Shown here one piece after another: positions 34,290-58,693 of a stretch of DNA of 64,000 nt. The notes under the pieces were generated by a model. It made no database searches and was not told where the DNA came from. It worked only from the letters and a program-made list of their open reading frames with translations. Source of the DNA: Candidatus Aminicenantes bacterium UBA2190 (GTDB lineage Bacteria > Acidobacteriota > Aminicenantia > UBA2199); assembly GCA_002335385.1 (NCBI GenBank), contig DCVK01000021.1, positions 137,635-201,634 of the forward strand. The letters are read 5' to 3'. Each line of letters starts with the position of its first letter. The first letter of the stretch is position 1. A program made the translations under genes and the position numbers.

Positions 34290-34311
34290 GAACAAACGGG
34301 AAAGCGGGGAC

Positions 34312-36706: not shown

Positions 36707-36825
36707 TCCCGGCGCGCGCAAGAAGCATGCCCTGCGCACGTGCACCCTGGACGCCGGCCGCCTCTTCGCCGCCGCTTTTCCTGCGGCCAGCGGAAACCCG
36801 CAAAAACCCGGAGCATGACGACATC

Positions 36826-36875: not shown

Positions 36876-36901
36876 ACCAACAAGTCATATTAGGGAGGAC
36901 C

Positions 36902-37516
36902 ATGCCCAAAAAGACATTTCTCAACCTCAGTGCCGCAAAAAGGCAACGGTTCGTCAAGGCAGCCCGTGCTGAATTCGCGGCCCGAAACTACGCCGCCGCC
37001 AACCTGGATGAGATCTGTCGGAAGGCGGGCATTCCCAAGGGGTCCCTGTACCAATATTTTGAAAACAAGCGGGACCTTTATGATTTCATCTCCCATCAGG
37101 CGCTGGATGAAGCCTGGCACTTGCTGGGGGCTTTCCTGGAAAAGGATCCGCCCCGAGATTGTTTTGACATGCTGGGGAAAACCTGGATGTTTTTAGAAAA
37201 AATGAAGCGCGAGGAGCCCCAGCTGCTCAACATTTACTATCGCGCAGGTTATGAGCATAAACAGGTGAATCGGCCCATCGGGGAGCATAACGATGCCTTT
37301 CTCGATCGCTTTTTATCCTGGGGAATCGGCGAAGGGATGATCGATCCCAAGCTGGACCGGGTTGCGGTCGCCTTCATGATCGACGCCGTTTCCAACCGTT
37401 TTCAGGAAGAGGTGCTCTTTCCCAGGAGGAAAAAGATGCGGGAAAAGACCCCCCCGAACGATCTGGCGATGAAACTGCTGGAATTGTTGCGCCGCGCGCT
37501 GGGCCCGTTGAAATAA
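36902..37516 (+). CDS. TetR/AcrR-family transcriptional regulator
   Basis: N-terminal HTH (ICRKAGIPKGSLYQYFENKRDLY). GGGAGG RBS. Confidence 0.85.
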   Translation: MPKKTFLNLSAAKRQRFVKAARAEFAARNYAAANLDEICRKAGIPKGSLYQYFENKRDLYDFISHQALDEAWHLLGAFLEKDPPRDCFDMLGKTWMFLEKMKREEPQLLNIYYRAGYEHKQVNRPIGEHNDAFLDRFLSWGIGEGMIDPKLDRVAVAFMIDAVSNRFQEEVLFPRRKKMREKTPPNDLAMKLLELLRRALGPLK

Positions 37517-37530
37517 AATAAGGAGGAAAA

Positions 37531-38703: not shown

Positions 38704-38841
38704 CATCCACGTACAATCGAGTCAGTGCAAACCAAAAGAAGGTTTTCAGGCAAGGAGGTTTCAGTGCAATAAATAGTTCCCCAAGCCGGCAGCGGTTGGT
38801 TTTTTGAGTATGAAAAACGTCTGACCTACAAGGAGGTCGCA

Positions 38842-39618
38842 GTGAAGAAATTGTTTATGGTGCTGCTGTTCATGATGGCCTGTGCGGCAAATGCAGCGGA
38901 AAGCCCTTTTAAGAAAGGTACTGCCTATTTGAATTTCAATTTCCATGTCAGCGGTAAATCCTGGACCGAAATCGGGAATCCCTCCTCTTCGGTCTTTGGG
39001 GTAACCGGGCCAAACTTGCTGCCGGGCGATTCCTTGGGAGTGGACAAGCTCGCTGTCCACAACAATCAAAGCTTTGGCAACATGGCGACGGGGGTTGCCC
39101 TGGAATACGCACTCACCAATAACCTGGGACTGGAATTTCAATATTCCAATCGCTCCAACGATTATGAGGGGGTTGCCATTGAACTGGCAAAACCCGAAGA
39201 ATCCGAATCCGGCAATGGAGTAAAACATATAGTCCTCAACCACTACTATGATGCGGGGAGATTCTCGGATCGGGTCCTTTCATTGGGGTGCAACTACCAT
39301 TTGAATTTCATCGGGATCCGCCGTCTGGATGTTTACACCGGCTTCCAGCTTGGGATCGAGGAGAAGAAATTTTCCGTCCATTCACGCTTGAAGGAAAGCG
39401 TTAAACTCGAGTTCCCGGCCATGGAGAAGGAATTTTGGATCACCCCCGTCGATTATGCGGGCAATCGGGGCCTACTGGTCTATTCTCATGTCGCCGCCGG
39501 CTTGAATTTTTTCTTCACCAAGAGGATCGCAATCAACTTACGCTCGGGCTTGAAAATCGGTTCCCAGGGATATGAATCGGAGTTTTTTGGCGGCGCCGGA
39601 TTGACTGTGAAGCTTTGA
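38842..39618 (+). CDS. hypothetical outer-membrane beta-barrel protein
   Basis: Signal peptide (cleavage ~AANA-AE) and alternating hydrophobic beta-strand pattern. Confidence 0.5.
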   Translation: MKKLFMVLLFMMACAANAAESPFKKGTAYLNFNFHVSGKSWTEIGNPSSSVFGVTGPNLLPGDSLGVDKLAVHNNQSFGNMATGVALEYALTNNLGLEFQYSNRSNDYEGVAIELAKPEESESGNGVKHIVLNHYYDAGRFSDRVLSLGCNYHLNFIGIRRLDVYTGFQLGIEEKKFSVHSRLKESVKLEFPAMEKEFWITPVDYAGNRGLLVYSHVAAGLNFFFTKRIAINLRSGLKIGSQGYESEFFGGAGLTVKL

Positions 39619-39740
39619 TCATCCAACCATGGCCGCACACCTCGTCCCCAGGCTTTAGAGTTCCTGCCGGTCAGCTAACCTGTGGATGGCAGTGATGAAT
39701 TGAGGATAGACATTCTTATGAAAACAAGAAGGAGGCTCTC

Positions 39741-40412
39741 ATGAATTTCAAAAAAATGCTTTTCATCTGGTTATTGCTGTTCCCGCTGGCACTGAGCGCG
39801 GATATTTTATCGGGCGCGCGCCTGGGCTTTCAGCAGGGGCATCTGCTTTCGCGGCTGGATTTTTCCTGGAACCTGTCGCCATACAGCATCGCCGACATGC
39901 AGCGTGCCCAGGGCGGCATTTTCCTGTCGCTCCGGCTGGGAGATCATTTCGCCATCCGACCGGAATTGAACTTCACGCAAAAAGGGGTGCACGTCCGCTC
40001 TGGGGGGGCGCAGATCCCTCCGTCCGAGGAAACGCGGCGCTTTGAATTTGTCGAATTTCCGGTCAATGTTCATTTCTACCCCTTGGGAAAAAGGGGCGTT
40101 GTGACCCCGTCGTTCTTCGCCGGTCCCTACGCTGCCGCCCGGATTGGCTGGCGAATGACCGTCAACGGCAGAGAAGTTGACGTGCCCTCTTTTCTGGCCC
40201 ATTCTTTCGATCTGGGCATGATGGCGGGCATCGCCTTGGCCGCGAAAACCGGAGCCGGACGTCTCCATTGCGAGTTGCGGTATTCTCATGGGCTTAGCAA
40301 TTTTTTGGAGGACCCATGGTACGGCAGTCATCCCGAATCGACGACCATTAAAACGCGTTCCCTGGCCCTGCTGTTCGGCTTCAGCCTGCCGCTGGGCAAG
40401 AATTGGCAATAA
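39741..40412 (+). CDS. outer-membrane beta-barrel protein (OmpA-like 8-strand / porin family)
   Basis: Signal peptide, amphipathic strands, and aromatic-rich C-terminus. Confidence 0.55.
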   Translation: MNFKKMLFIWLLLFPLALSADILSGARLGFQQGHLLSRLDFSWNLSPYSIADMQRAQGGIFLSLRLGDHFAIRPELNFTQKGVHVRSGGAQIPPSEETRRFEFVEFPVNVHFYPLGKRGVVTPSFFAGPYAAARIGWRMTVNGREVDVPSFLAHSFDLGMMAGIALAAKTGAGRLHCELRYSHGLSNFLEDPWYGSHPESTTIKTRSLALLFGFSLPLGKNWQ

Positions 40413-43147: not shown

Positions 43148-43336
43148 ATAAGGCAAAAGGTAAAAGTAAGAGACGAAGCACCAAATTCCAAGCACCAAAC
43201 AACAAATAATTTCCAAATCCCAAATTCCAATGTCCAAAACGAGAGCCCTTTCAGTTTCTTTTCTTTGTTTGGGTCATTGAATCATTGGCATTTGGTGCTT
43301 ATTTGGGATTTGGTGCTTGTGATTTGGAATTTTAAT
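43148..43336. repeat. B-type tandem-repeat hairpin element (copy 2), preceded by an AAGGCAAAAGGTAAAAG module
   Basis: Same architecture as 29090-29243: ACCAAAT/TCCAAAT units, core CCAATGTCCAAAACGAGAGCCCTTT, loop, TTTCTTTGTTTGGGTCATTG, and inverted units. Again at a convergent gene junction. Confidence 0.65.
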
Positions 43337-43370
43337 TCTTACAATATCTTCCTCTATCGTAGACCGTGAC

Positions 43371-50000: not shown

Positions 50001-50253
50001 GCCCCGGGAGATGGAAAAGATCTTCTACGTGGGCGCGGTGAAGCTGTTCGCCCGCCAATGCGGCTGGCGCAAGGCCGAGGTTTTCGCCGACCGCGTGCAG
50101 TTCGACGCCGGCCGCGAGACGGCGCTGCCGGCGGGCAGGGCCTTCGTCGTGCCGGGGCTGAAGCATCTGGAGGGCGGCAACTTCGAGCTGGAGTTCTCCG
50201 GGCTGGACGGGTTTCTGGCGCTCGAGAAAGGGCTCAAGAGGCTATTCCAATAA
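47062..50253 (+). CDS. mfd: transcription-repair coupling factor Mfd
   Basis: RNAP-interacting, UvrB-homology, and superfamily-2 helicase motifs (Walker A GDVSFGKTEV, DEEQRFG, TRG-like C-terminus). Start could be 47071 if the mRNA is leaderless (see findings). Confidence 0.9.
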   Translation: MKLMVETLFSPVFWQKLDSRRRRIEVASIDREARELAVAAVFVHFNESVVWLVGENEPLEEKKEKLAQWLKLLGNEGAPIHSHLLPFEDPYINAVADPRRIADKQRLQVDMAAGSKMIVLSTPAALSIRLERPGGRDKALQLGAGDLWERGELIEKLTALGYQARAAVEIAGDLAWRGNVLDVFPVAGEQPVRLEFEGRRLASLRTFDLESQRSTGTIAAVLVGENRYASGSAGADAAFLTDLLPGCRLLASNWRRLEDEYGKLLDNFRRIREAVAGRRGKVPEVGELFPFPVAAQRLIDLADFAADPRALPEVRVLPKALAGLNDDDIGDLQRRSEHGWRLLAFAADARLLENLRVRLPRLECHFFNIPCSFENPLLRLACLTGRNFLLPAREEPARRVPAEEELREMAEGDWVVHRRHGIGRFAGFTRLRLEGAAGEFLKIEYLDREYLYVPLHELEVLKRYSGSEGAAPALDRLGGRTWQAKTARARKAIVQYTRELLDLYAMRKSVRKTALAAVPELEEKLQQDFRFVETEDQKQAIARVLADMEADFPMDRLVCGDVSFGKTEVALRAALRAMANGRQAAFLCPTTILALQHFRNFERRLAAFPLRLGMLSRLVSGAGKKRVLAGLKSGAIDLVVGTHSLLASGVEFKRLGLFIVDEEQRFGVFQKEKLKKGRENIDVLTLSATPIPRTLSMAMSGLQDISLIQSPPLGRLAIRNYVGLFSRQVVVSAVLNEVERDGAVFVVHNNIEHIFRFRDQLASWLPDVPIVVIHAQMPTAAIEKNLMDFIAGKFRVLLSTTIIENGIDIPRVNTMIVLNADRLGLTQMYQLRGRIGRSTRQAYAYFLVDDRKGGVSELAKKRLAGIREFSELGAGYKLAEFDLHLRGAGALLGNRQHGHVEALGYDYFLELLRQTIRGLKGDTSEERELALRVHFPYAVGEDYIAGTAERIAAYRRVLEAGDAFELRALRDELGDRYGQMPREMEKIFYVGAVKLFARQCGWRKAEVFADRVQFDAGRETALPAGRAFVVPGLKHLEGGNFELEFSGLDGFLALEKGLKRLFQ

Positions 50254-50257
50254 TTAA

Positions 50258-50430
50258 GTGACAGTGTCAGTGTCAGCAGGAAGCATTCAGGGCAATCAAT
50301 GACAGGGAAAGTTTAAGTGTTTGCAGGAGGTTCAAGAAGTCAAAAATAAAGCGAAAGTCAGCGGAAATTATTGGCCTTAAAGGATTTCGGTTATTTCTCT
50401 TGCTGACACTGTCACTGACACTGACACTGT
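50258..50430. repeat. inverted pair of E-type (CTGACA)n hexamer arrays flanking a ~115-bp spacer
   Basis: 50258-50280 GTGACAGTGTCAGTGTCAGCAGG in reverse orientation. 50397-50430 CTTGCTGACACTGTCACTGACACTGACACTGTTA forward. Lies between convergent mfd and a small minus-strand gene. Confidence 0.65.
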
Positions 50431-50447
50431 TACCGGAACTGGAAGAG

Positions 50448-50810
50448 CTAAGGCTTGGTGATCTCCAGGGTCTCCTTCTGCAGTCCGTGCTTCGGGCACT
50501 TCCTGAGGACGCGGATCTCCCCCTTGTCCTTTCCGGTCAAGGAGACGACCAGGTCGAGCCGGTAGACGCCTTCCTCCGTCAGTTCCCACTGGCCCCGCTT
50601 TTCGATCTTCAGCCCTTCCGTTTCCAGGATCGTCTCCGCGATGGCTACCGGGCAGCGCCGGTGTATGCACTCGACGAACAATTTCACCTGGAACTGGTCC
50701 GCTTTGCCCTTGACCAGCGGTCCGGTCTCGCTGTAGACGTAGCAGGGAAGCAGTTGCGACATGCTCCCCATGACCAGCAGCGTCATTATCAATAATATGG
50801 GTCGTTTCAT
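50448..50810 (-). CDS. small secreted/lipoprotein-like Cys-containing hypothetical protein
   Basis: Signal peptide MKRPILLIMTLLVMGSMSQLLPC. 120 aa with 4 Cys. Confidence 0.5.
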   Translation of the reverse strand: MKRPILLIMTLLVMGSMSQLLPCYVYSETGPLVKGKADQFQVKLFVECIHRRCPVAIAETILETEGLKIEKRGQWELTEEGVYRLDLVVSLTGKDKGEIRVLRKCPKHGLQKETLEITKP

Positions 50811-50861
50811 GTTATTCCTTATACGTTAGACAATTGCGTCCGATTTTTCTTGCGTTCCAGA

Positions 50862-50980
50862 GAGTGTCAGTGACAGTGTCAGTGCCAGCAAGAGAAGCGA
50901 ACGAAATCGGAAAATATAGCAACCAATTCATTTTTTTCTTGCTGTCACTGCCACTGACACTGTCACTGTCAGTGGCAATA
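50862..50980. repeat. E-type palindromic element: reversed (CTGACA)n arm, ~45-bp spacer, forward arm
   Basis: AGTGTCAGTGACAGTGTCAGTGCCAGCAAGAG...TTTCTTGCTGTCACTGCCACTGACACTGTCACTGTCAGTGGC. Imperfect ~30-bp arms. Confidence 0.65.
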
Positions 50981-50990
50981 CGTTGAATTG

Positions 50991-51797
50991 CTATTCCTTC
51001 AGCCTGACCCATATCCCGGCCGCGGCGTCCTCTTCGTCGCGGCGCACCTCGAAGTCGGGGAGCGACTTGATCAGCGACGACAGCTGGCGCTGGCCGAAGC
51101 TGCGCGGGTCGAAGCCGGGGTCGAGCTGCTGCAGCGCCTTGCCCATCGGCCCCAGGTTGGCCCAGCCGTTCTCCTGCACCGCCATCTCGAAGGCTTCGCG
51201 CAGCAGCGGCATGGGATCGGTGCCGGCGTAGAGCGCCTGCGGCGGCGGTGGCGGTTGCGGCGGCTGCTCCTGCGGCCCCGTCTTGCGGCTGCCGCCGCGG
51301 CCGCGGTCGCGCCCGCGCTCCTGGCGCTGCTGGCTTTCGCGGCGCGGCGCCAGGTTCTCGGTGTAGATGAAGATATCGCAGGCGTTGACGAACGACTTGG
51401 GGGTCTTTTTCTGGCCGATGCCCATGACGAAGAAGCCCTCCTCGCGGATGCGCGTCGCCAGGCGCGTGTAGTCGCTGTCCGAGGAGATGATGCAGAAGCC
51501 CTCGACGAAGCGGCGGTGCATGATGTCCATGGCGTCGATGATCAGGGCGCTGTCGGTGGCGTTCTTGCCCACGGTGTAGCGGAACTGCTGGATGGGCTGC
51601 ACGGCGTGCATGTGCAGCGCCTCCTTCCAGGAGTGCATGCTGGACGTGGTCCAGTCGCCGTAGATGCGGCGGATGGTCACCGATCCGTGCTTGCCCACTT
51701 CGGCCAGCATCTTGGGCAGCAGCGAGGCCTGGGCGTTGTCGCCGTCGATGAGGACGGCCATCTTGGTGTCCTTGTTTTCTATGTTGGGTTGAGCCAT
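50991..51797 (-). CDS. NYN-domain (PIN-like nuclease) protein with C-terminal OST-HTH/LOTUS domain
   Basis: VLIDGDNA...RIYGDW NYN signature with Asp cluster. Gln/Pro-rich linker, then a LOTUS-like helical C-terminus (LLREAFEMAV...LIKSLPDFEV). Confidence 0.75.
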   Translation of the reverse strand: MAQPNIENKDTKMAVLIDGDNAQASLLPKMLAEVGKHGSVTIRRIYGDWTTSSMHSWKEALHMHAVQPIQQFRYTVGKNATDSALIIDAMDIMHRRFVEGFCIISSDSDYTRLATRIREEGFFVMGIGQKKTPKSFVNACDIFIYTENLAPRRESQQRQERGRDRGRGGSRKTGPQEQPPQPPPPPQALYAGTDPMPLLREAFEMAVQENGWANLGPMGKALQQLDPGFDPRSFGQRQLSSLIKSLPDFEVRRDEEDAAAGIWVRLKE

Positions 51798-51885
51798 TTT
51801 CTCTCCACTAGGTCATTGGCTAATGATTTACTGTAACAGAGATGGGGAGTTTAGTCAAGCTGGGGGGCGGCGTAAGGCGAAGCTC

Positions 51886-51998
51886 AGGGAAAGGCAGAGG
51901 GAAGAGAGAGGGAAGAGAGAGTGGAAAGGCCCTTTCAGGACATCTTTCCCACTTCGTCTTCCCTCTGTCTTTCCCTCACTCTTCCCTCATTCTTCCCT
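51886..51998. repeat. D-type 11-mer (GGGAAGGCAGA / GGGAAGAGAGA) tandem-repeat hairpin
   Basis: Forward arm of ~4 units. Loop CCCTTTCAGGACAT. Reverse-complement arm CTTTCCCACTTCGTCTTCCCTCTGTCTTTCCCTCACTCTTCCC. Lies between the 3' end of the DUF5916 gene and the start of the NYN gene. Confidence 0.65.
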
Positions 51999-52004
51999 GC
52001 ATTT

Positions 52005-54626
52005 CTATAGATTGAAATTGTAGGTGAACTTCACCAGGAACACGTTTGTCGACGGCAGGCGCATCAGGTCGCTGAAGCCGCCGGCCACGTCGAACTCGCC
52101 GCGGCCCAGGTCGCCGGAGCGGCCCTGGCTCCAGACCGCGTACAGGGCGGCTCCCGGGCGGTACTCCCAGCGCAGCACCAGGTTGGAGCGCAGCTCGAGA
52201 ACGCGGAAGTCGGGGTTGGCGAAGGAGTAGACAGCGCCGCCCGCCTCGTTCACCAGGTAGTTGCCGCCCTCGGGGTCGAGGCTGATTTCGCCGGCGGCGA
52301 AGGGGCGCAGCTGGTCGTGGATCGAGCCGGCGCGGGGATCGACGACGCGGCGGAAGCCGGCGTAGCGGCCGTTGCTCAGGAAGGGCTGGCCGTAAAACTG
52401 GATGGAGAGGTCGGGGGTGAGGCAGTAGTTCAGGCGCAGGGTCACGTAGTAGGTGTCCTGCTCGATCGTGCCCAGGATATAGCGGCTCTCGCCGCCGATC
52501 TCGGGGGCGGCCACGTACTGCCTGAGGTTGCGGTTGTAGGAGTAGCCGGGAGTGACGCGCAGCGACAGGCGGCTGCCCGGGCGGTAGGCCAGGGCCAGGC
52601 TGGCCCCGCCGCTCTCGCGCGTGTCGTGATCGGCCCGGTAGATCGAGCCGCTCAGCGAGGCCACGAAGGGGCGGCGCGAGTCGCTGCCCAGGCCGTACCA
52701 GACGTTCCAGCCGGGATCAAAGCGCAGCGCCGGGCCGCCGCGCAGGGCGCCGGGCGAGAGGTTGGGCCCCTGGCGGTTGATGCCGGCGTTGACGCTCCAG
52801 TAGTTCTTCAGCTCGCCCCAGAAATTGACGTTGCCGCCGACGAAGATCGGCTCCATGCCGAAGTCGTATCCCTTCCAGCCGTTGAGGTTGATGCCCAGTT
52901 GGTTGAAGATCCAGGTCGGCTTGCGGATGCGGTAGCCGGCCCAGCCCCAGGCCATGGCGGCGTCGCTCCTCCCCAGGTAGCCCATGTCGTTGAGCTCCAG
53001 GCCAGGCGAGCGCCAGGTCAGGCCTCCGGCCCAGTTGATCCCGGTCCCGGCGCTGCGCCCCAGCTCCAGGTTGCCGCCCCAGCCGCCAAGCGAGGTGCGC
53101 GTCGGGTCGAATTCCAGGTAGTCGGCGTCAGGACGCTGAAAGTAGCGGACCGGGGACTTCTGCGTGCGCTCGATCGCCTCGGCGTTTCCTCGCACCAGGC
53201 TGAAGACGGTCTTGGCCGAGACGTGGAAGCGGCGGTTCTTCCAGCTGTGGTAGATGTCGACGCCGCCGCTGTAGGCCTGGCGGTGGAGGAAGTCGAGCTG
53301 CGGGTCGCTGATGTCGCGGTGGACCGCGGTGACCATGGCGCCGAGCACGGTCTTGCCCTCGTTGAGATCCTGCTGGGCGCGCAGCATGAAGTAGTTGGTC
53401 AGCGGTTCCACCGTCTCGTTGCGGTTCCCGCCCGAAAAGGCGATGGCTGCGCTCTCGCGGGCGGTCAGCGCGTCCAGCACGCCGAGCGACAGGCCGCGGC
53501 GCGTCTTGCCGGTGACCTTGAAGGCGCCCAGGATCGAGGTCGCCGTGGGCATGTCGAGGTACTCGCCGGGGCCGGTCTCTGGCCAATGGCGCGGGGCGCG
53601 GCCGACGCGGCGCGAGTAGAAGAGGTTGTCCATGCTGAAGTCGCCGTCGCCGCCCATGATCTGGAAATTCAGGATGCTCTTGCCTTCGGTGAAGAAGGGG
53701 CGCTTCTCCTGGAAGAAGGTCTCGTAGGCCGTCAGGTTGACCACCGAGGGGTCGGCCTCGACCTGGCCGAAATCGGGGTTGAGGGTGAAGTCGAGGGTCA
53801 GGTCGCTGCTCAGACCGACCTTGCCGTCGAGACCGCCGAGCAGGGCGCCGCTGCGGCCGTCGGCGAACGGGTTGCCCGCCTGGCGCGGCGACAGCGTTGC
53901 CTGTGCCACGGTGTAGGGGACGATCTCCACCTGGTGCTGGGCGCGGATGCCCTTCAGCCCCTCGAGAACGCCGAAACTGCTGACGAACCCCGGCGCCTCC
54001 TTGGGGATGTACTGCCAGGAGGAGATCTCCTGCCGGCGGTGGAGCAGGCGCCGCACCTGGAAGCCGAAGGCGACGTTTTCGCCCGCGGCGAAGCGCAGCT
54101 GGCTGAAGGGGATGGCCATCTCGGCCGTCCAGCCGCGGTCGTCCATGGCGGCGGCCGCGTCCCAGACCGGGTCCCAGGTGGAGTCCTGGTTGTTGCTGTC
54201 GCCCGAGAGGGTGACGTCGGCCTTGACGCCGGCGGCGTTGACCTTGAAGCCCAGGGCGGTGCGCTTGTCGAAGTAGCTGTCGATCAGGACCGCCACGTAG
54301 TCGCCGTCGATCTCGTCGCGGCGCGAGATGCGGCGCCCGATCTTTCCCGACTCGTTGTCGTGGCAGCGGACCAGCACGTACAGGTGCTTGTCGTCGAACA
54401 TCACCTTGAACTCGGTGGGCTCGCCCGGGGCGGCGCCGCAGTCGGGCTCGCTCTGGGTGAAGCCGCCGCTCCACTCTGCCTTCTGCCAGCAAGGGTCGTC
54501 GCCGCGGCCGTCGATCGCCGGCGCGTGGGGATTGATATGCTTGCAGGTGTAGACTTTCTTTTCCGCGGCGTCGAGCGCCGCCAGGCCCAGCAGGGCCATC
54601 AACAACGCGAACAGCGCTTTCTTCAT
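52005..54626 (-). CDS. large secreted outer-membrane-associated protein, DUF5916 / carbohydrate-binding (CBM9-like) family
   Basis: Signal peptide MKKALFALLMALLGLAALDA with GGAGG RBS. About 870 aa with a C-terminal beta-barrel-like region ending in aromatic-rich ...VKFTYNFNL. The ORF-track N-terminal extension beyond 54626 is repeat-derived and spurious. Confidence 0.7.
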   Translation of the reverse strand: MKKALFALLMALLGLAALDAAEKKVYTCKHINPHAPAIDGRGDDPCWQKAEWSGGFTQSEPDCGAAPGEPTEFKVMFDDKHLYVLVRCHDNESGKIGRRISRRDEIDGDYVAVLIDSYFDKRTALGFKVNAAGVKADVTLSGDSNNQDSTWDPVWDAAAAMDDRGWTAEMAIPFSQLRFAAGENVAFGFQVRRLLHRRQEISSWQYIPKEAPGFVSSFGVLEGLKGIRAQHQVEIVPYTVAQATLSPRQAGNPFADGRSGALLGGLDGKVGLSSDLTLDFTLNPDFGQVEADPSVVNLTAYETFFQEKRPFFTEGKSILNFQIMGGDGDFSMDNLFYSRRVGRAPRHWPETGPGEYLDMPTATSILGAFKVTGKTRRGLSLGVLDALTARESAAIAFSGGNRNETVEPLTNYFMLRAQQDLNEGKTVLGAMVTAVHRDISDPQLDFLHRQAYSGGVDIYHSWKNRRFHVSAKTVFSLVRGNAEAIERTQKSPVRYFQRPDADYLEFDPTRTSLGGWGGNLELGRSAGTGINWAGGLTWRSPGLELNDMGYLGRSDAAMAWGWAGYRIRKPTWIFNQLGINLNGWKGYDFGMEPIFVGGNVNFWGELKNYWSVNAGINRQGPNLSPGALRGGPALRFDPGWNVWYGLGSDSRRPFVASLSGSIYRADHDTRESGGASLALAYRPGSRLSLRVTPGYSYNRNLRQYVAAPEIGGESRYILGTIEQDTYYVTLRLNYCLTPDLSIQFYGQPFLSNGRYAGFRRVVDPRAGSIHDQLRPFAAGEISLDPEGGNYLVNEAGGAVYSFANPDFRVLELRSNLVLRWEYRPGAALYAVWSQGRSGDLGRGEFDVAGGFSDLMRLPSTNVFLVKFTYNFNL

Positions 54627-54708
54627 CGTCGTCCTCCTCGGGATCGGGATCGTACCTGCCTGGTAATACTTGGGATTGGGGGGAGAGGTAACAGGAAAGC
54701 CAGTCCAG

Positions 54709-54845
54709 TCACAGTGACGAGTGACAAGTGACGAGTGACGAGGAGCGGGCAAAGAAGAGAGACTCAAGGGAAGGCAGAGGGAAGGCAGAGGGAAGAAGGA
54801 GGGAAGAGAGAGTGGGAAAAGCGGGAAGCGGAGGGAAAAGAGGAT
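54709..54845. repeat. AGTGACG heptamer x4 (I-type) followed by D-type GGGAAGGCAGA 11-mer x4
   Basis: CACAGTGACGAGTGACAAGTGACGAGTGACGAGG...AAGGGAAGGCAGAGGGAAGGCAGAGGGAAGAAGGAGGGAAGAGAGAG. Single arms upstream of gene 54921. Confidence 0.6.
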
Positions 54846-54920
54846 GTCGGGAGGCCCGGGATCAGGACTTTCATTATTTCCGGTTCGGGAGTACCATCTT
54901 GCCGGCAAGGAGGAACACGA

Positions 54921-55193
54921 ATGGCTTATGAAGCGGAAGGAAGAAAGATCGCCGCCGACCTGCGTGCGCAGTGCGGCAAGCTGCTGGAGGCGCGCCTGGA
55001 GTCGAAGAGCCCCAGCCGCATCGTCCTGGCCTTCGAGAAACAGACCATCACCCTGCCGGGCAATTTCATTTTCCAGTTCGGCTATGCGGGATCCGGGCCC
55101 GATTGCTTTCACGCGTTCCTCCAGGAGTCGGGTTTCAGCGTGACCAAGGAGCAGGTCACCGGGGCCAAAGAGGGCGATATTCTGAAGCCCTGA
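54921..55193 (+). CDS. small hypothetical protein (90 aa)
   Basis: AAGGAGG RBS 7 nt upstream. No recognisable motif. Confidence 0.5.
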   Translation: MAYEAEGRKIAADLRAQCGKLLEARLESKSPSRIVLAFEKQTITLPGNFIFQFGYAGSGPDCFHAFLQESGFSVTKEQVTGAKEGDILKP

Positions 55194-55204
55194 AAGAAAA
55201 GATC

Positions 55205-55337
55205 TTCTAAAGGCAAAAGGCCAAAGGAAAAAGGCAAAAGTGAAGAAAGATATCTATCGAGTGCTCTCTGCAACCACTATCACTACCGCTCAAGTCTCGT
55301 TTGCTTTCTTGCTGACACTGACACTGTCACTGACACT
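55205..55337. repeat. A-type AAGGCAAAAG module, F-type CCACTA hexamer x4 module, and E-type (CTGACA)4 module in series
   Basis: AGGCAAAAGGCCAAAGGAAAAAGGCAAAAGTGAAG ... CAACCACTATCACTACCGCT ... CTTGCTGACACTGACACTGTCACTGACACT. The E module ends 21 nt before the RBS of gene 55359. Confidence 0.65.
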
Positions 55338-55358
55338 TAGAATAAATAAGGAGGAATC

Positions 55359-56072
55359 ATGGATCCGCTGGTCAGCCAGGTACGCCGGGAGCTGAGGGAG
55401 AATACCGACGAGAAGAAGCGCCGGGGGGCCCAGGCCTATTTCAAGGAGGGGGTGACCTGCCTGGGCGTGGGCACGGCGACCGTTCACCGCATCGCCCGGG
55501 AGAGGATCGCCGATCTCAAGGGCATGACCAAGGGGGAGGTCTTCGGGCTGTGCGAGGAGCTGTGGCGCGCGGGGAGCCTCGAGGAGACGATCGTGGCCTG
55601 CGACTGGTCGTACTTCATCCGCCGGCAATACGTCCCCGGGGACATCACGGTGTTTGCCGGGTGGGTCGGCAAATACGTGAACAATTGGGCGTCATGCGAC
55701 ACGCTGTGCAATCACTCGGTCGGGGAACTCCTGGAGATGTACCCGGAGCGCGTGGCCGATCTGAAGCAATGGGCCCGGTCGAGGAACCGCTGGCTGCGGC
55801 GCGGGGCCGCCGTGTCGCTGATCATCCCGGCCAAGAAGGGAAAGTTCCCGGACGACGTCATGCAGATCGCCGACATCCTGCTCGAAGATCCGGACGACCT
55901 GGTGCAGAAGGGCTACGGCTGGATGCTGAAGGTGGCCAGCCAGGCGCGGCAGAAGGAGATCTATGCCTACGTGATGCGCAACAAAGCGGCCATGCCGCGA
56001 ACGGCCCTGCGCTATGCCATCGAGAAGATGCCGGCCGAATTGAAACGGCGGGCGATGAAGAAGCAGGCATGA
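55359..56072 (+). CDS. DNA alkylation repair enzyme (AlkD/AlkC-like HEAT-repeat glycosylase family)
   Basis: N-terminal ...RGAQAYFKEG...GVGTATVHRIARE typical of PF08713. HEAT-like helical repeats throughout. Confidence 0.75.
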   Translation: MDPLVSQVRRELRENTDEKKRRGAQAYFKEGVTCLGVGTATVHRIARERIADLKGMTKGEVFGLCEELWRAGSLEETIVACDWSYFIRRQYVPGDITVFAGWVGKYVNNWASCDTLCNHSVGELLEMYPERVADLKQWARSRNRWLRRGAAVSLIIPAKKGKFPDDVMQIADILLEDPDDLVQKGYGWMLKVASQARQKEIYAYVMRNKAAMPRTALRYAIEKMPAELKRRAMKKQA

Positions 56073-56083
56073 AGGGAAGTTCT

Positions 56084-56225
56084 CAAGGGAAGGCAGAGGA
56101 AAGAAACAGATGAGGTTCGAAGTTCGACGTTCGACGTTTAAGAATAAAGCGAGAGGAGAAAGGCTATAACACTTGGATCTCGCTTATGTTCTTGCTGACA
56201 CGGACACTGCCACTGACACTGTCCT
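56084..56225. repeat. D-type unit, C-type GTTCGAA/GTTCGAC heptamer x4, and E-type (CTGACA)n module
   Basis: CTCAAGGGAAGGCAGAGG ... GAGGTTCGAAGTTCGACGTTCGACGTTT ... CTTGCTGACACGGACACTGCCACTGACACTGTCC. A TATAAT box (56248-56253) lies between the E module and the RBS of gene 56297. Confidence 0.65.
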
Positions 56226-56296
56226 GAAATAAAATCCATTTCCGCATATAATGCTGGCGTGCTCCGCTCCCGGGGGCGGGGAACAAGGAGGAGCAA

Positions 56297-56857
56297 ATGG
56301 TGACATTGTTTTCATTGTGGCTGCCGATCGTCGTGGCGGCCGTTGTCGTGTTCATCGCCAGCTCGGTCATCCACATGGCGCTGCCCTGGCACAAGAAGGA
56401 CATGATCAAGGTGCCCGGGGAGGACGAGGTGCGCGAGGCGCTGCGCAAGTTCGCCATCCCGCCCGGGGACTACGGCGTCCCCCACGCCGGCTCGATGAAG
56501 GAGGGGAGCTCGCCGGAGTTCACCGCCAAGCTGAACGAGGGGCCGGTGCTGTTCATGTCGGTGGCCAGGAACGGCCCGCCCAACATGGCGCTCAGCTTCG
56601 TCTTCTGGTTCCTCTACTTGCTGGTCGTCGGCAAGCTCACGGCCTACGTCGCCTGCCTGGCGCTGCCCGCCGGCGCCGCCTTCCTGCCTGTCTTCCGTCT
56701 CACCGGCGCTGTGGCCTTCGCCGGTTACTCCCTGGCCCTGCTGCAGCGGCCCATCTGGTACGGCGGCAGCTGGTGCGCGACCCTCAAGTCGGTGTTCGAC
56801 GGCCTGGTCTACGCTTTGCTGACCGCCGCCGTCTTCGGCTGGCTGTGGCCGCGCTGA
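56297..56857 (+). CDS. hypothetical integral membrane protein
   Basis: About 5 predicted TM segments. GGAGG RBS. Confidence 0.5.
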
Positions 56858-56906
56858 GGTGCTTCGGGCATATCTTGTAAACGATACCGGACAATAATCA
56901 GATAAC

Positions 56907-57028
56907 GGGAGGGTTTGAAACCCTCCCCTACGTGAAGATGTTTCTTTTCCTCCTGCAACCACTACCACTATCACTACCACTGATACCTGTAATGCCTCTT
57001 GCTGACACTGACACTGTCACTGACACTG
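56907..57028. repeat. J-type hairpin GGGAGGGTTTGAAACCCTCCC+CTACGTGAAGA, F-type (CCACTA)4, and E-type (CTGACA)4 modules
   Basis: Stem-7/loop-7 hairpin followed by the CTACGTGAAGA tail, as at 57850-57881. The F and E modules are near-identical to those at 55268-55337. Followed by TTGACG...TATATAAT promoter-like boxes before gene 57100. Confidence 0.65.
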
Positions 57029-57099
57029 TTTAGTTGACGCGGTCATACAATGATGCTATATAATAATAACGATGAATTAACGCATCGGGGAGGTGTATC

Positions 57100-57327
57100 A
57101 TGGTCAAGACGCTCAGCAAGCACGGCAACAGCCTGGCCCTGGTCATCGAGAAGCCGGTGCTCGAGCTGCTGGGCGCCGACGCCGCCACTCCCTTCGAAGT
57201 GACCACCGACGGCCGGGCGCTGGTGCTGACGCCGGTGCTCGACCCGCAACGGCAAAAGCGCTTTGCCGCGGCCCTGGACAAGGCGAACAAGAAATATCCC
57301 CGGGCGTTGAAGAAGCTGGCCGAATAG
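57100..57327 (+). CDS. AbrB/MazE/SpoVT-family antitoxin (Phd-like partner of Doc)
   Basis: 75 aa. Swapped-hairpin motif region KHGNSLALVIEKPVLELLG. Stop overlaps the Doc start (TAGATG). Confidence 0.75.
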   Translation: MVKTLSKHGNSLALVIEKPVLELLGADAATPFEVTTDGRALVLTPVLDPQRQKRFAAALDKANKKYPRALKKLAE

Positions 57328-57735
57328 ATGGCCGGCCCCGTTTTCCTGACTTTGGCCGAGGTGTTGGAGATCCATCGCGACCAGATCGGTCGTTACGGGG
57401 GCAGGGAGGGAATCCGCGACCTGGAGCTGCTGCAATCGGCGCTGGCCGTTCCCGCGGCTTCCTTCGCCGGCGGATTCCTGCATGAGGGCCTGCCGGAGAT
57501 GGCCGTCGCATACCTGTTCCACATCGTCCGCGACCATCCCTTCATCGACGGCAACAAGCGCACGGGGGCGGTGGCGGCGCTGGTTTTCCTGCTGCTCAAC
57601 GGCCATGAGCTCCGCGCCCCGGAAGACAAGCTGTTCGAGGCTGTCCTCGCCGTGGCCTCCGGGAAGATGTCCAAGGCCGAGCTGACCCTGTTCTTCCGCC
57701 GCTGGACGAAAAAAGGGCAGGGAAAGAAGAGATAG
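57328..57735 (+). CDS. doc: Doc (death-on-curing) toxin, Fic-fold kinase
   Basis: Fic/Doc motif HPFIDGNKRTG. About 135 aa. Confidence 0.9.
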   Translation: MAGPVFLTLAEVLEIHRDQIGRYGGREGIRDLELLQSALAVPAASFAGGFLHEGLPEMAVAYLFHIVRDHPFIDGNKRTGAVAALVFLLLNGHELRAPEDKLFEAVLAVASGKMSKAELTLFFRRWTKKGQGKKR

Positions 57736-57762
57736 GACGGGATTAGAACCTGTTTCCGCATC

Positions 57763-57945
57763 GGGCGGGCACGGGGGCCCGCCCCTACGGAAATATTGCG
57801 GCAGGCTTACACCCCAAGGAGGTTAAACCCTCCTTACATGGAAAAATGCGGGAGGGTCACAGACCCTCCCCTACGTGAAGAGACAATGGGAACCTGCCGG
57901 TGTAGTCCTCCAGCTCTTGCTGACACTGACACTGTCACTGACACT
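57763..57945. repeat. three consecutive GC-stem hairpins each followed by CTACG (J-type), then an E-type (CTGACA)4 module
   Basis: GGGCGGGCACGGGGGCCCGCCC-CTACGG. AAGGAGGTTAAACCCTCCTT. GGGAGGGTCACAGACCCTCCC-CTACGTGAAGA. CTTGCTGACACTGACACTGTCACTGACACT at 57915-57945. Confidence 0.65.
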
Positions 57946-58213
57946 TTCTTCAATATTTTGAATTTTTTATAACAAAATAAAATATCACATTTTTCCCTAT
58001 TGTCTCCTTGTCCGCCAAAAACTATAATTTTCTCTTGATCACCCGATGGACGCTAAAGGAATTCATCCTCCCCTGCGAAGCTTCCCCAGGCCACCGGCGG
58101 GAGCTTGGGAAAATATTAAGGAAAGCACCTTTAAATAAATCATATAAGCGGGGCGGCAGATGGATAGCGGATCAGCGGTCCGCCCCGAAAATTATTAGGA
58201 AGGAGGACAGGAA

Positions 58214-58627
58214 ATGTCTGAACAAATCAGGGTTCGTTGGGGCTGGCTCAAGGGAATGTATGTGTACACGATTGCTGTGGCGGGGTTTCTTGGCTTGGGA
58301 ATCATCGTCATGCCCGAAATGATCAGAACGAAGTTGCCATGGCCGGTTGCAGAACCAACGGCTTTCGGGGTTGTCGGCAGCATTTATGTGGCATGCGGAC
58401 TGCTGGCCATATTGGGACTGCGCTCTCCTCTCAAATTTGTGCCGCTTCTTTTGCTGCAGCTTTTCTACAAGTCCGTATGGTTCATCGGCGTCGCCTTGCC
58501 TCTCTGTGTCAGCGGCCATTTCCCGACTTATGCGCTGCCCATGGCGATCATCTTTGTAACGTTCATCATCGGAGATCTGATTGCAATACCTTTTTCATAT
58601 GTCTTTGCTAAAGAACCAAGTCAGTAA
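58214..58627 (+). CDS. hypothetical small membrane protein (4 TM)
   Basis: Hydrophobic helices. GGAAGGAGG RBS. Confidence 0.5.
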   Translation: MSEQIRVRWGWLKGMYVYTIAVAGFLGLGIIVMPEMIRTKLPWPVAEPTAFGVVGSIYVACGLLAILGLRSPLKFVPLLLLQLFYKSVWFIGVALPLCVSGHFPTYALPMAIIFVTFIIGDLIAIPFSYVFAKEPSQ

Positions 58628-58693
58628 AGGGCTGTTGGGGACGGAACGTTCCCCGGTTCTGTTCGTAGTAATGAGAACCAGATCAAGGATAAG

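Follow-up and report, generated by a model that had tools for sequence, protein, structure and literature searches.

A (CTGACA)n module that recurs between 50 and 58 kb of a 64,000-nucleotide stretch of Candidatus Aminicenantes bacterium UBA2190 DNA (the window) is the most conspicuous family in a lineage-wide system of dispersed short-tandem-array repeats, which form the long intergenic gaps of Aminicenantes. We interpret it as a polar, STRR/BIME-like gene-boundary repeat, lineage-wide in distribution, and give this explanation as a whole a probability of about 0.6. That the arrays act as orientation-dependent transcript-boundary elements is put forward more tentatively, as less likely than not. 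The eight window copies are a product of local repeat richness where gene content varies, and not a regulon.

The module unit is polar and approximately 45-50 bp long: a T-rich leader (~TTCGNTNATTTNT) is followed by CTTG (the head), three to six CTGWCA hexads and then CT. Eight copies of tTtCTTG-(CTGWCA)3-6-CT were found at 50.25-57.95 kb, where none is expected by chance, and none in the rest of the window. In searches of the window, the 24-mer CTGACACTGACACTGTCACTGACA gave nine matches at <=3 mismatches (0.00 expected) and the two-unit pattern CTGWCACTGWCA gave 26 (0.34 expected), all within 50259-57943. The 24-nt array is identical in the copies at 55308, 56998 and 57916, and a second subtype, A-T-A-A, is present at 50403. 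Both orientations of the TGACA core occur among the hexads, so that nearly every copy contains the 11-bp palindrome TGACA-C-TGTCA; homogeneous arrays are rare (7/147). All eight copies listed by an earlier, sequence-only reading were recovered, at its positions or a few bases off, and the unit grammar it described was correct: the third unit is CTGTCA, which creates the overlapping palindromes TGACA-c-TGTCA and TGTCA-c-TGACA. The hexamer array that it took for the conserved unit also stood, but the conserved unit is longer and includes the T-rich leader before CTTG. Its statement that four forward copies lie 20-300 bp upstream of genes agrees with tail-to-ATG distances of 21, 72, 72 and 268 nt, and the AlkD-like and Doc identities were confirmed by Pfam.

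Table 1. Module copies and associated repeats at 50-58 kb of the window.
Feature	Position	Strand	Remarks
Module copy, three units, CCTG head	50256..50284	-	tail begins 3 nt past mfd stop codon
Inverted pair 1, head-in	50256..50284 (left arm), 50386..50429 (right arm)	-, +	centre ~111 bp
Module copy, T-rich leader TTCGGTTATTTCTCTTG, A-T-A-A	50386..50429	+	refined core 50399-50429
Module copy with leader	50863..50905	-	refined core 50863-50892; tail ~53 nt upstream of 120-aa gene start (50810)
Inverted pair 2	50863..50905 (left arm), 50938..50977 (right arm)	-, +	centre ~45 bp
Module copy, five to six units	50938..50977	+	tail ~14 nt from NYN/OST-HTH gene stop
Inverted pair of (AGAGGGAAGAG)n 11-mer arrays	51896..51998	.	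between NYN start and CBM9 stop
(CGTCACT)n heptamer array, CACT-periodic superfamily	54713..54742	-	C-rich strand runs to CBM9/DUF5916 start (54626)
Composite block, ~130 bp	55209..55337	+	(AAAGGCA)4, CACTAN array (55270-55290), module (55308-55337)
Degenerate module copy, CTGACA CGGACA CTGCCA CTGACA CTGTCC	56191..56224	+	
REP-like hairpin GGGAGGGTTTGAAACCCTCCC, then CTAC (GTAG on other strand)	56907..56931	+	
Composite, CCTCCTGCAA(CCACTA)n array and module	56950..57027	+	array 56950-56983, module 56998-57027
Second REP-like hairpin, same family as 56907..56931	57850..57874	+	
Module copy, right direct repeat flanking phd-doc	57916..57945	+	

The tail of the right arm of pair 1 and the stop of the 120-aa minus-strand gene are ~20 nt apart, and the position of this arm is kept in the related loci L183, L130, L225 and L226. 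In pair 2, conservation of the left arm is 100% in both L183 and L130, and the arm orthologous to the right one is of the CTAACA/CTATCA type in L183 and of the CACTAT type in L225. The 11-mer arrays, whose C-rich strands face outward, showed a 22-bp (two-unit) copy-number difference between strains ~99.8% identical. The heptamer array had been assigned, as a GTGAC variant, to gene 54921; it points instead to the minus-strand CBM9/DUF5916 gene. The module that closes the ~130-bp composite reads TTTCTTG(CTGACA-CTGACA-CTGTCA-CTGACA)CT and ends 21 nt before the AlkD-like ATG; the entire block was found again in L193 and L211, in unrelated contexts, and several assemblies end within it. A promoter-like CTGAAA-17-TATAAT and then a 186-aa membrane gene follow directly 3' of the degenerate copy. 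The composite at 56950..57027 (91% identity to L118) has a REP-like hairpin upstream and the phd-doc promoter TTGACG (57034-57039) 6 nt past its tail. Its module (56996-57027) and the copy from 57914 on are identical over 32 bp and form the left and right direct repeats around phd-doc; after the right one, a conserved promoter region, TTGTCT-17-TATAAT (58000-58028), is followed by different genes in L225 and L228. The hairpin at 56907..56931 is part of a recurring block of REP, CACTAN array and module at gene 3' ends, and the second hairpin has two degenerate copies, at ~57763-57790 and 57808-57833.

The module is one among many short intergenic arrays of the window. Arrays of period 5-8 fell within the intergenic 16% of the sequence in 112 of 140 cases, and more than 40 other unit families occupy the same gaps, several of them common to different MAGs and most with the polarity of the module. 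Modules frequently join REP-like hairpins and arrays of CACTAN or AAAGGCA in composites, and composite blocks recur. Head-bearing modules were found in at least five Aminicenantes MAGs (UBA2199, UBA6072, Zod_Metabat.920, PFL21 and clean593) and in one Acidobacteria-labelled MAG, RA.bin124; the related loci were all chosen for containing the module, the window alone being the exception. The window and UBA2199 share 90-96% identity over shared genes. The module was also present on 96 metagenome contigs and on 0 viral contigs, its sites in MAGs and contigs being always intergenic, and assemblies from several metagenomes end inside modules, a sign of multi-copy status. Matches in other taxa were mostly coding repeats without the head (91/119 in long open frames). 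A spread regardless of gene context, named beforehand as counting against an operator or cassette role, was observed across the lineage, although the window itself shows its copies in a cluster.

Within a repeat-filled gap, module copies occupy the outer margin and set the tail against the flanking gene, start or stop, and the head inward. In 62 of 71 cases the tail, and not the head, was the end closer to a gene, and ~20 of 25 copies in a separate count showed the same; the median distance from tail to stop was 25 bp and from tail to start 60 bp, and heads lay at 176-211 bp. Across 96 independent metagenome loci, tails faced stops 59 times and starts 49 times (45 vs 23 where both flanking genes were known), and modules lay between convergent genes in 18 cases and between divergent genes in six. 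Some copies stand alone; others form head-to-head inverted pairs, whose AT-rich centre is not conserved, or 47-bp tandem duplications or clusters. Neighbouring copies formed 24 head-in pairs, 20 direct and two tail-in, and ~42% of the copies have no inverted partner. The genes faced by tails are functionally unrelated and include the core genes rpoD, ahcY, murG-murJ, rarA and mfd. Among CTGNCA arrays, 77 of 86 had the C-rich strand running toward the closest gene, as did 113 of 167 arrays of other types, where the polarity stems partly from linkage inside composite blocks; the AAATTCC and AACGTGG families showed the opposite polarity. With arrays removed, a skew test gave +0.12 at gene ends, 5' and 3' alike, compared with -0.025 in control bacteria. 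These statistics rest on crude gene models (ORF length times GC3 minus GC2). Tail-out foldback elements that fill short gaps could produce the polarity as a side effect.

Comparison of related genomes revealed that arrays persist at orthologous positions, with unit sequences turning over in concert from CTGACA to CACTAT or CTAACA. In a ~90% identical relative, orthologous CTGACA units were replaced by non-palindromic CACTAT/CCACTA units, and in L183 one arm had drifted to CTAACA/CTATCA, its partner arm being unchanged; paired arms thus do not always stay complementary. Module arms can be 100% conserved across species despite diverged flanking intergenic sequence, and the CTGACA modules were identical in ten of ten near-identical assemblies. 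The arrays also act as dispersed homology for the insertion, deletion or inversion of gene-sized units: relatives with 77-86% AlkD identity showed single-gene gains and losses in exactly the 50-58 kb module region; phd-doc, between its identical direct repeats, is an inserted or deleted unit, whose empty site has one module copy in L228 and none in L225, with breakpoints at array tails; and a two-gene segment was inverted, with breakpoints within array blocks.

A promoter-like site was located between tail and start in 51% of the start-facing copies and after only 3% of the stop-facing ones. Relative to the tail, predicted promoters are downstream at a variable distance, several tails being 3-14 bp from the -35 element; modules are situated upstream of that element, not between -35 and -10. 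Sigma-70 promoters were enriched in the window (33 vs ~10.5 expected), and intrinsic-terminator-like sites were not (52 vs ~46 expected). Inverted module pairs fold as long stems (z = -4.0 and -5.4) with loops of 33-186 nt, far above those of known terminators, and no U-tract follows the module tail. By published Rho-loading-site criteria, blocks (37%) scored scarcely above random windows (30%), and YC dinucleotides are almost absent from (CUGACA)n. In high-GC bacteria, terminators tend to have long stems and short U tracts, and 3' ends are marked by stem-loops in both termination modes (PMC13613805).

In the transcript-boundary role that we propose, an RNA polymerase nearing a gene from outside would, immediately ahead of that gene, transcribe the C-rich array strand. 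Paired copies may then give a 25-30-bp stem-loop at the transcript 3' end; single copies might offer a strand-specific signal, either to a termination factor or to a bound protein that serves as a roadblock. By either route, adjacent transcription units would be shielded from one another in a genome poor in canonical terminators.

The sequence-only reading had offered a shared operator, controlling a regulon of accessory genes. This was not supported, since tails face stops as often as starts, with enrichment between convergent genes, the genes are unrelated, promoter distance varies, units are replaced at orthologous sites and more than 40 similar families exist. The same observations bear on a broader form of this idea, a binding array for a dimeric ribbon-helix-helix-like protein (omega-heptad or MatP/matS type) that would serve as shared operator or as a nucleoid-organising or roadblock site. 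We consider it unlikely: stops are faced as often as starts, convergent gaps are enriched, promoter distance is not fixed and adjoining genes are unrelated, and beyond this, orthologous arrays become CACTAT, CCACTA or CTAACA units without the palindrome, and the other families, more than 40 in number, act alike. The palindrome present in almost every copy, with homogeneous arrays at 7/147, nevertheless speaks for such binding, as do the several tails 3-14 bp from a -35 element and the A-to-T junction cTGACACTGTCAC, which agrees with E. coli matS19 GTGACACTGTCAC at 12 of 13 positions. Unspaced heptads in both orientations are the binding target of the omega repressor, and a hexamer array is one way of reading the Fur box; to our knowledge, MatP is found only in enterobacteria and their relatives. 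A possible though doubtful explanation is that selfish or neutral foldback repeats of a MITE-like or BIME-like kind, with no cellular function, make up the modules; they would spread via transposition or gene conversion and be tolerated between genes only, and their tails would point at genes simply because a tail-out foldback in a short gap has one outer end beside each neighbour. The prevalence of head-in over tail-in pairs (24 vs 2), nested pairs (pair within pair) in L131, L160, L200 and L215, the ~130-bp composite in unrelated contexts and a foldback present in L225 and missing from the window at ~92% identity are in agreement with it, and so are the tandem 47-bp duplications, the rapid concerted unit turnover and the assembly breaks at modules. 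However, no target-site duplications were found, centres are unrelated from copy to copy and ~500 kb of module-bearing sequence contained 0 transposases; single copies, and non-complementary outer arrays (AAAGGCA on one side, CTGACA on the other), keep the outward C-rich polarity, and arms are 100% conserved between species where the flanking intergenic sequence has diverged.

The modules might also be recombination sites of an attC-like gene-cassette system, gene and module being moved by a site-specific recombinase. Four direct copies between successive small same-strand genes, the single genes gained and lost in the region among relatives, the phd-doc indel with exactly one 32-bp module at the empty L228 site and breakpoints at tails, and what is left, directly behind the module tail in L226, of the ribosome-binding site and start codon of AlkD all fit this scheme, which we hold to be quite improbable. 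No integrase was found within 7-10 kb in five genomes and no integron integrase in the window, whose only tyrosine recombinase, 31 kb away, is an XerD equivalog (337.6 bits vs a cutoff of 329.6; integron integrase model, 132 bits vs a cutoff of 265). RYYYAAC/GTTRRRY core sites are absent, the genes have their own promoters, the L225-specific genes were gained with neither arrays nor modules at their junctions, a different repeat flanks the 137-aa unit of L226 on both sides, and elsewhere most copies adjoin core genes and stop codons; homologous recombination between direct repeats of 32 bp to 100 bp accounts equally well for the single indel. The suggestion that modules bound cassettes is partly supported, by phd-doc and the variable gene content of the region; the other gene gains lack modules. 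Contingency loci, in which unit number shifts by slippage and switches neighbour genes on or off, would be consistent with the proximity of arrays to promoters and with the two-unit difference in the 51.9 kb 11-mer array between ~99.8% identical strains. We find this hardly credible for the modules, which are identical across ten near-identical assemblies, lie upstream of -35 and not between -35 and -10, and face stop codons in half of the cases; their heterogeneous units follow conserved patterns (A-A-T-A, A-T-A-A), which indicates that they are copies of master sequences and not slippage products.

Several known systems share single traits with the gene-boundary repeat. The match to matS19 recalls matS/MatP, and omega-binding heptad arrays likewise consist of contiguous short units, direct and inverted mixed; matS sites, however, are single, number 23 per genome and occur in the Ter domain only, the arrays of omega and ParG overlap with promoters or with centromeres, and, unlike matS and the ribbon-helix-helix operators (omega, ParG boxes, MetJ metboxes), the module forms many arrays at gene ends and drifts to non-palindromic units at orthologous sites. 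Integron attC arrays are similar in their direct repeats between small same-strand accessory genes, including a toxin-antitoxin pair, in gene units that are present or absent with one repeat remaining at the empty site and, for paired modules, in inverted arms with a variable centre just past a stop codon; the module system differs in lacking an integron integrase and R''/R' cores and in having genes with promoters of their own, most module copies elsewhere adjoin core genes, and other indels are module-free. MITEs and foldback elements (Correia, Nezha) resemble paired modules in their ~25-35 bp terminal inverted repeats, short centre, intergenic location, nested insertions and assembly breaks, but modules show no target-site duplication, have unrelated centres, no cognate transposase was found for them, and many are single or direct copies.

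The closest analogues of the Aminicenantes array system are the STRR repeats of cyanobacteria and the BIME mosaics of enterobacteria. STRR sequences, the short tandemly repeated repetitive sequences of cyanobacteria reportedly described by Mazel et al. in 1990, have like the module 6-7 nt units in few tandem repeats; their copies are numerous, dispersed and non-coding, each genome has several unit families, and the distribution is lineage-specific. They belong to another phylum and have other unit sequences, and the module differs from them in its conserved CTTG head, T-rich leader, mixed-orientation grammar, tail-to-gene polarity, head-in pairing and composite blocks, none of which, as far as we know, has been described for STRR. 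The term is in use in PMC2670836 and PMC4046671, and RUT-like signatures near transcript 3' ends are reported in STRR-bearing heterocystous lineages by PMC13613805, a paper that does not say whether they correspond to STRR. REP/BIME elements are, like the module, intergenic, multi-copy, enriched at gene 3' ends and in convergent gaps, depleted in divergent gaps, and arranged as mosaics of repeats with alternating orientation. Proposed or demonstrated roles of REP/BIME elements are the stabilisation of mRNA 3' ends, transcription termination and the binding of proteins. An individual REP consists of one imperfect palindrome, 20-40 nt long and headed by GTAG, and owes its mobility to a RAYT transposase, whereas the module is a tandem hexad array, not itself palindromic; true REP-like GTAG hairpins are separate elements that adjoin the modules (56907, 57850).

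All eight (CTGACA)n copies claimed by the sequence-only reading were present on direct reading of the region (table). The hexad array was confirmed as the repeated unit in part: the unit is longer and also includes a T-rich leader before CTTG. We refer to the whole as the module, with a CTTG head preceded by the leader, an array of three to six CTGWCA hexads and a CT tail. The exact 24-mer CTGACACTGACACTGTCACTGACA was found three times in the window (55312, 57002 and 57920) and nine times when up to three mismatches were allowed, against 0.00 expected from shuffles. A two-unit pattern gave 26 matches, all within 50259-57943, against 0.34 expected, and a chance origin of the copies is rejected by these counts.

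Pfam searches confirmed the neighbouring genes as mfd, a gene for a 120-aa protein, NYN/OST-HTH, CBM9/DUF5916, an AlkD-like DNA_alkylation protein and Fic/Doc. As had been described, the forward copies precede successive genes, their tails ending 21, 72, 72 and 268 nt before the start codons, and at 50.2-51 kb four copies are arranged as two inverted pairs. The heptamer array that had been placed before gene 54921 exists, but points to the minus-strand CBM9 gene. The module is one of many short intergenic arrays in the window, with periods of 6, 7 and 11 (Tandem Repeats Finder). No Rfam family was found at gathering thresholds anywhere in the window.

Features of the window, in window coordinates, and states of the phd-doc site
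Feature	Position (strand)	Remark
Module copies	50256 (-), 50399 (+), 50863 (-), 50938 (+), 55308 (+), 56191 (+), 56998 (+), 57916 (+)	
Heptamer array	54713-54742	
Short arrays in gaps	25.2, 26.9, 27.0, 29.1, 46.6, 46.8, 51.9, 54.7, 55.2, 56.1, 56.96 kb	Tandem Repeats Finder
11-mer (AGAGGGAAGAG)n array	51896-51926	upstream of NYN
Composite block	55209-55337	(AAAGGCA)n, CACTAN array, module
AAATTCC/GCACCAA foldbacks	29087-29240, 43160-43340	
REP-like hairpins	56907-56931, 57850-57874	GGGAGGG-N7-CCCTCCC then CTAC (GTAG on opposite strand)
Degenerate REP-like hairpins	~57763-57790, ~57808-57833	
Segment inverted in L130 and L227	50448-51797	120-aa gene, NYN/OST-HTH
Gene-flux hotspot	54.9-64 kb	among relatives (L225-L228)
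137-aa gene and upstream sequence	58132-58588	
Sequence related to GGGGACGGTGCTTGACTTTGTGACTTTAGCGAGATCGTGAAG ... TTGGGGACGGACYGTTAATA	58630-58665	3' of 137-aa gene
XerD equivalog	18328-19254 (+)	
Genes with low third-position GC	34282-40412, 58214-58627	
Small repeat-coding ORF	25291-25551 (-)	
Hairpin-plus-T-run terminator	1439-1474	
phd-doc site, L228		REP hairpin, (CCACTA)n, module, promoter region
phd-doc site, L225		REP hairpin, (CCACTA)n, promoter region (no module)
phd-doc site, window		REP hairpin, (CCACTA)n, module, phd-doc promoter, phd, doc, REP hairpins, second module, promoter region

A scan for (CTGWCA)4 with one genome per species returned at least 118 loci. Among the matches listed from unrelated taxa, 91 of 119 lay inside long ORFs, and most were without the CTTG head; coding repeats of the SD/LT type account for most (CTGWCA)4 matches elsewhere, but not for the window copies. 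Head-bearing modules were found, among the matches listed, in the Candidatus Aminicenantes MAGs UBA2199, UBA6072, Zod_Metabat.920, PFL21 and clean593 and in one MAG labelled Acidobacteria. Scanning metagenomes for head plus array added 96 further loci with 147 modules (other module-bearing or orthologous loci are designated here by L numbers). No module was found in a scan of viral contigs, and an association with phages is rejected on that result. Full-text literature searches, with the module sequence and for Aminicenantes together with repeats, yielded no relevant description of the element.

Identity to the UBA2199 contig DCVB01000003 is 90-96% over shared genes, and the window therefore comes from a close relative of UBA2199. 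The same strain is represented, at 99.7-100% identity, in ten assemblies from hydrocarbon-associated and other metagenomes. Several of their contigs start or stop inside a module, as expected of a multi-copy repeat. The modules are unchanged across these ten assemblies, with no polymorphism in unit number. The 11-mer array upstream of NYN, at 51.9 kb, carries two additional units (22 bp) in L120 (2395-2440), and this is the only indel in 9 kb between strains otherwise about 99.8% identical. A phase-variable simple-sequence repeat is thus not supported for the modules, as only the 11-mer array varies.

All module copies in Aminicenantes loci are intergenic, and they are strongly polar. Of 71 cases in the independent metagenome sample, 62 (about 87%) had the tail, not the head, as the end nearer to a gene. 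The median distance of the tail was 25 bp from a stop codon and 60 bp from a start codon, and heads lay 176-211 bp from the gene. The gene end faced by the tail was 3' in 59 cases and 5' in 49 in the same sample; where both neighbours were known, tails pointed toward stops 45 times and toward starts 23 times. The gaps holding modules were tandem (28), convergent (18) or divergent (6). The consensus 3' of the tail is mildly T-rich, without a U-tract and without a fixed -10 element.

Neighbouring copies are arranged as head-in inverted pairs (24), direct tandems (20) or tail-in pairs (2), the centres of head-in pairs measuring mostly 33-186 bp and the gaps of direct tandems about 23 bp. A loose or better inverted partner lies on the head side of 58% of copies. 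The 24-25 head-in pairs have arms of 24-35 bp, that is, terminal inverted repeats, around AT-rich centres that are dissimilar among copies and in some cases include nested pairs; BLAST of centre against centre returned only nested arrays or same-locus matches, and no consistent target-site duplication was found in the flanks of 25 pairs. Two window pairs fold into long stems (z = -4.0 and -5.4), with arm stems of 19-36 bp. In the direct clusters a 47-bp unit is repeated in tandem; the 19-bp linkers are nearly identical, which indicates tandem duplication and rejects a CRISPR array of repeats with unique spacers.

On the head side the flanks are mosaics of CACTAN, CCGTAAA, GCGTTAC, GTTGAAAC, TTGGAAT, CTTTTGC, CTGGAA and other arrays. 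Across 171 kb (window and MAG loci), 140 arrays have a period of 5-8 and 112 of these are intergenic, although intergenic sequence makes up 16% of the total; more than 40 unit families occur there, several of them common to different MAGs. Whole combinations recur as well: the composite block of the table in other contexts (L193, L211), and CCTGCAA(CCACTA)n followed by a module at L118, L075, L060 and L056.

The strand on which the module reads from head to tail is rich in C. The C-rich strand is directed at the nearest gene in 77 of 86 CTGNCA arrays and in 113 of 167 arrays of all other kinds; the AAATTCC foldback family has the reverse polarity, with C-rich strands inward (3:12). In an array-independent test on the 80 nt at gene ends, read toward the gene, the C-versus-G skew was +0.12 at both 5' and 3' ends and +0.105 without CTGNCA segments, compared with -0.025 in GC-rich control bacteria; these polarity and skew values include linkage within composite blocks and come from related loci chosen for carrying the module.

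The AAATTCC/GCACCAA foldbacks are about 180 bp long and consist of arrays around a conserved centre, with 83-93% identity to copies in L043, L052, L118, L165, L182, L186, L194 and L224. Unlike the CTGACA modules, they are conserved over the entire element, and may represent a genuine MITE, a structured RNA or a terminator. REP-like hairpins recur in L225 and L228, at gene 3' ends, within blocks of REP hairpin, CACTAN array and module; such hairpins suggest that a RAYT-type transposase is encoded somewhere in the genome. A small repeat-coding ORF was also observed, the 3' part of which is a coding (GGCCAA)n repeat. Its lysine/alanine-rich tail resembles those of histone-H1-like nucleoid proteins; as a DNA-binding protein, the product might matter to this repeat-rich genome.

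Two loci, L183 and L130, are orthologous to window 50.4-52.2 kb at about 75-82% identity. In both, the array at the 120-aa gene stop and the array pair between the 120-aa gene start and the NYN stop occupy the same place and point the same way. Despite diverged flanking intergenic sequence, the window, L183 and L130 share one identical arm; other arms in L183 and L130 show a concerted shift to CTAACA, CTATCA or CAAACA units, and no compensating changes were found in the partner arms of these drifted arrays. Of the four arrays at 50.2-51 kb, three belong to the CACTAT/CCACTA type in UBA2199 (about 90% identical), with the same head; at equivalent positions, CACTAT/CCACTA replace the CTGACA units in L225 (about 90% identical). 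Since the UBA2199 arrays switch type and keep the head, CTGACA and CACTAN arrays are interchangeable variants of one element, with turnover of the unit sequence far exceeding that of the genes. Arm covariation was discarded as a test of hairpin function because the orthologues conflict: one arm is non-complementary in L183, and both arms have switched together in L225.

It had been proposed that the modules are boundaries of a cassette-like gene array. This stands insofar as recombination-prone repeats edge gene units in a variable region; a dedicated cassette system is not supported. Comparison of AlkD-orthologue neighbourhoods (77-86% identity) showed that single genes, for the most part on one strand, come and go in the stretch after CBM9, among them ABC_trans_aux, GNAT acetyltransferase, deaminase, GGDEF, phd-doc and a 137-aa membrane protein. 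Nitroreductase, beta-lactamase and other genes are also gained or lost in this hotspot. The phd-doc pair is a unit between two identical 32-bp direct copies, with breakpoints at array tails, as seen from three base-level states of the same site (table). The conserved promoter region after 57945 lies upstream of three different genes in three genomes. With respect to the CBM9 gene, the related genomes of L130 and L227 carry the segment of the 120-aa gene and NYN/OST-HTH in inverted orientation, and both breakpoints lie inside array blocks.

The expectation that genes between modules vary as units was borne out by phd-doc, but not by the ABC_trans_aux and acetyltransferase genes specific to L225, at the junctions of which no arrays were found, nor by the 137-aa gene in L226, which is bracketed by a different repeat, approximately GGGGACGGTGCTTGACTTTGTGACTTTAGCGAGATCGTGAAG ... 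TTGGGGACGGACYGTTAATA (5905-5995 and 6775-6835). Related sequence occurs in the window and in L225 (12145-12250), and the 137-aa unit of L226 is preceded by what is left of the AlkD ribosome-binding site, with ATGGATCCGC. The 137-aa gene and its upstream sequence are duplicated about 7.5 kb downstream, past the window (97.4% identity; L119 10301-10758). One strain or assembly, L121, departs at 58650 from the window sequence, and from its position 4007 has other genes (SHOCT, copper ATPase) instead, which may reflect a deletion or chimera between the two 137-aa gene copies. Third-position GC is low in the genes of two stretches (about 0.58-0.68 versus about 0.85 elsewhere), and suggests recently acquired DNA.

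The genes between modules have their own promoters, as predicted sites, which counts against a cassette system. No Phage_integrase gene was found within 7-10 kb in the window, L119-L122 or L225-L228, loci that cover five genomes. The sole tyrosine recombinase of the window is an XerD equivalog, 31 kb from the modules, scoring below the integron integrase cutoff, and the module flanks contain no attC RYYYAAC ... GTTRRRY cores, the arms ending in ...AAGTG / CACTT.... An integron is therefore rejected, and homologous recombination between dispersed repeats suffices as an explanation. The cumulative GC-skew minimum of the window, at about 19 kb, adjoins the XerD equivalog. Neither a DnaA-box cluster nor replication genes were found near this minimum, and the idea of an origin-proximal centromere was dropped.

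The other proposal, that the module is a shared operator giving a regulon, was not supported. The four forward window copies do lie upstream of starts; across the metagenome loci, the tail points to a stop no less often than to a start, and the tail of the nearest copy lies anywhere from 3 to more than 54 bp from the -35, with no fixed spacing to -35 or -10. A promoter-like site is present between tail and start in 51% of start-facing copies and after the tail in 3% of stop-facing copies. Thirty randomly sampled tail-side genes are unrelated, among them rpoD, ahcY (S-adenosylhomocysteine hydrolase), a murG-murJ fusion, urocanase, rarA, FKBP isomerases, Aldedh (aldehyde dehydrogenase), a P-type ATPase and PilZ; mfd, NYN, AlkD and Doc are added to this set by the window modules. 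The recognition sequence is not conserved either, the palindrome being lost at orthologous sites occupied by CACTAT/CCACTA (L225) or CTAACA/CTATCA (L183, L130). A promoter inside the module (TTGCTG-17-GACACT) is rejected because better promoters lie 3' of the tail and half of the copies face stops, and a sigma-54 promoter in the CTGGCAC variants because there is no -12 element. As for a protein reader, the A-to-T junction cTGACACTGTCAC matches E. coli matS19 GTGACACTGTCAC at 12 of 13 positions, and also the 13-bp palindromic matS consensus GTGACRNYGTCAC at 12 of 13, with the outer G-C symmetry broken. In view of the match to matS19, a dimeric reader of the ribbon-helix-helix type is conceivable, by analogy, for the A-to-T-junction subtype. 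No landmark of a replication origin or terminus was found in the window.

Promoters of the sigma-70 type are about 3-fold enriched in the window (33 versus about 10.5 expected), with several perfect TTGACA-N16/17-TATAAT sites, and hairpin-plus-T-run terminators are at chance level (52 versus about 46 expected), only one of them being convincing. The genome appears poor in canonical terminators. According to a recent survey, stem-loops mark transcript 3' ends in both termination modes, with a tendency in high-GC species to longer stems and shorter U tracts (PMC13613805). A polymerase nearing a gene from outside would transcribe the C-rich array strand just before the gene, and in paired copies transcription of the second arm would complete a stem of 25-30 bp. 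For these reasons we favour a transcript-boundary role, in which the polar arrays would act as orientation-dependent boundary or insulator elements. While the polar placement of the element at gene boundaries is a direct observation, this mode of action is put forward tentatively. An intrinsic terminator is rejected, as there is no U-tract 3' of the tail, and large loops, uneven arm pairing and many single copies also weigh against any simple terminator. A classical rut site for Rho loading requires an excess of C over G across about 78 nt, the C residues being spaced every 11-13 nt (PMC6407284). The arrays have a C/G ratio of 1.58 in the sense direction and 37% of sense windows pass, hardly above random windows (30%; antisense, 1%); (CUGACA)n is almost without YC dinucleotides, and paired copies fail the need for unstructured RNA since their arms form stems. 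A classical rut site is therefore poorly supported. The main rival to the transcript-boundary role is that the modules are functionless foldback repeats, the polarity of which is merely geometric. Tail polarity, skew across unrelated array families and the apparent scarcity of terminators together make the directional hypothesis testable. That long intergenic gaps throughout a phylum-level lineage are made up of dozens of families of polar short tandem arrays insulating gene boundaries according to their orientation, as an undescribed class of termination or insulation signal, we regard as unlikely. The reader of such arrays would be either the termination machinery or a protein devoted to binding them, and the arrays would partly stand in for hairpin-plus-U terminators, the homology used in gene shuffling being a side effect.

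We conclude, with a probability of about 0.85, that the element is a new polar variant of the dispersed intergenic repeats known as STRR- or BIME-type phenomena, specific to Aminicenantes. STRR, REP and BIME repeats have been known for decades; the recognisable head and tail make the module an unusually clean handle on their function. Aminicenantes are abundant members of sediment and hydrocarbon-degrading communities, and their metagenome assemblies break at these repeats, which also mark sites where the gene content of close relatives differs, including a toxin-antitoxin unit between identical copies.

A REP is an imperfect palindrome of 20-40 nt with GTAG, whereas the module is a direct hexad array without GTAG; the hairpins at 56907 and 57850, separate from the module, do show the REP palindrome and GTAG. 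What the module shares with REP/BIME is its intergenic location, its enrichment at 3' ends and in convergent gaps, and the mosaics of alternating orientation. With MITEs the module pairs share terminal inverted repeats, but they lack both a target-site duplication and a conserved centre, and a MITE identity was rejected for the module. Cyanobacterial STRRs differ in their hosts, heterocystous cyanobacteria as against Aminicenantes MAGs, and in their units, but have in common with the module short tandem units, many dispersed non-coding copies and several families per genome.
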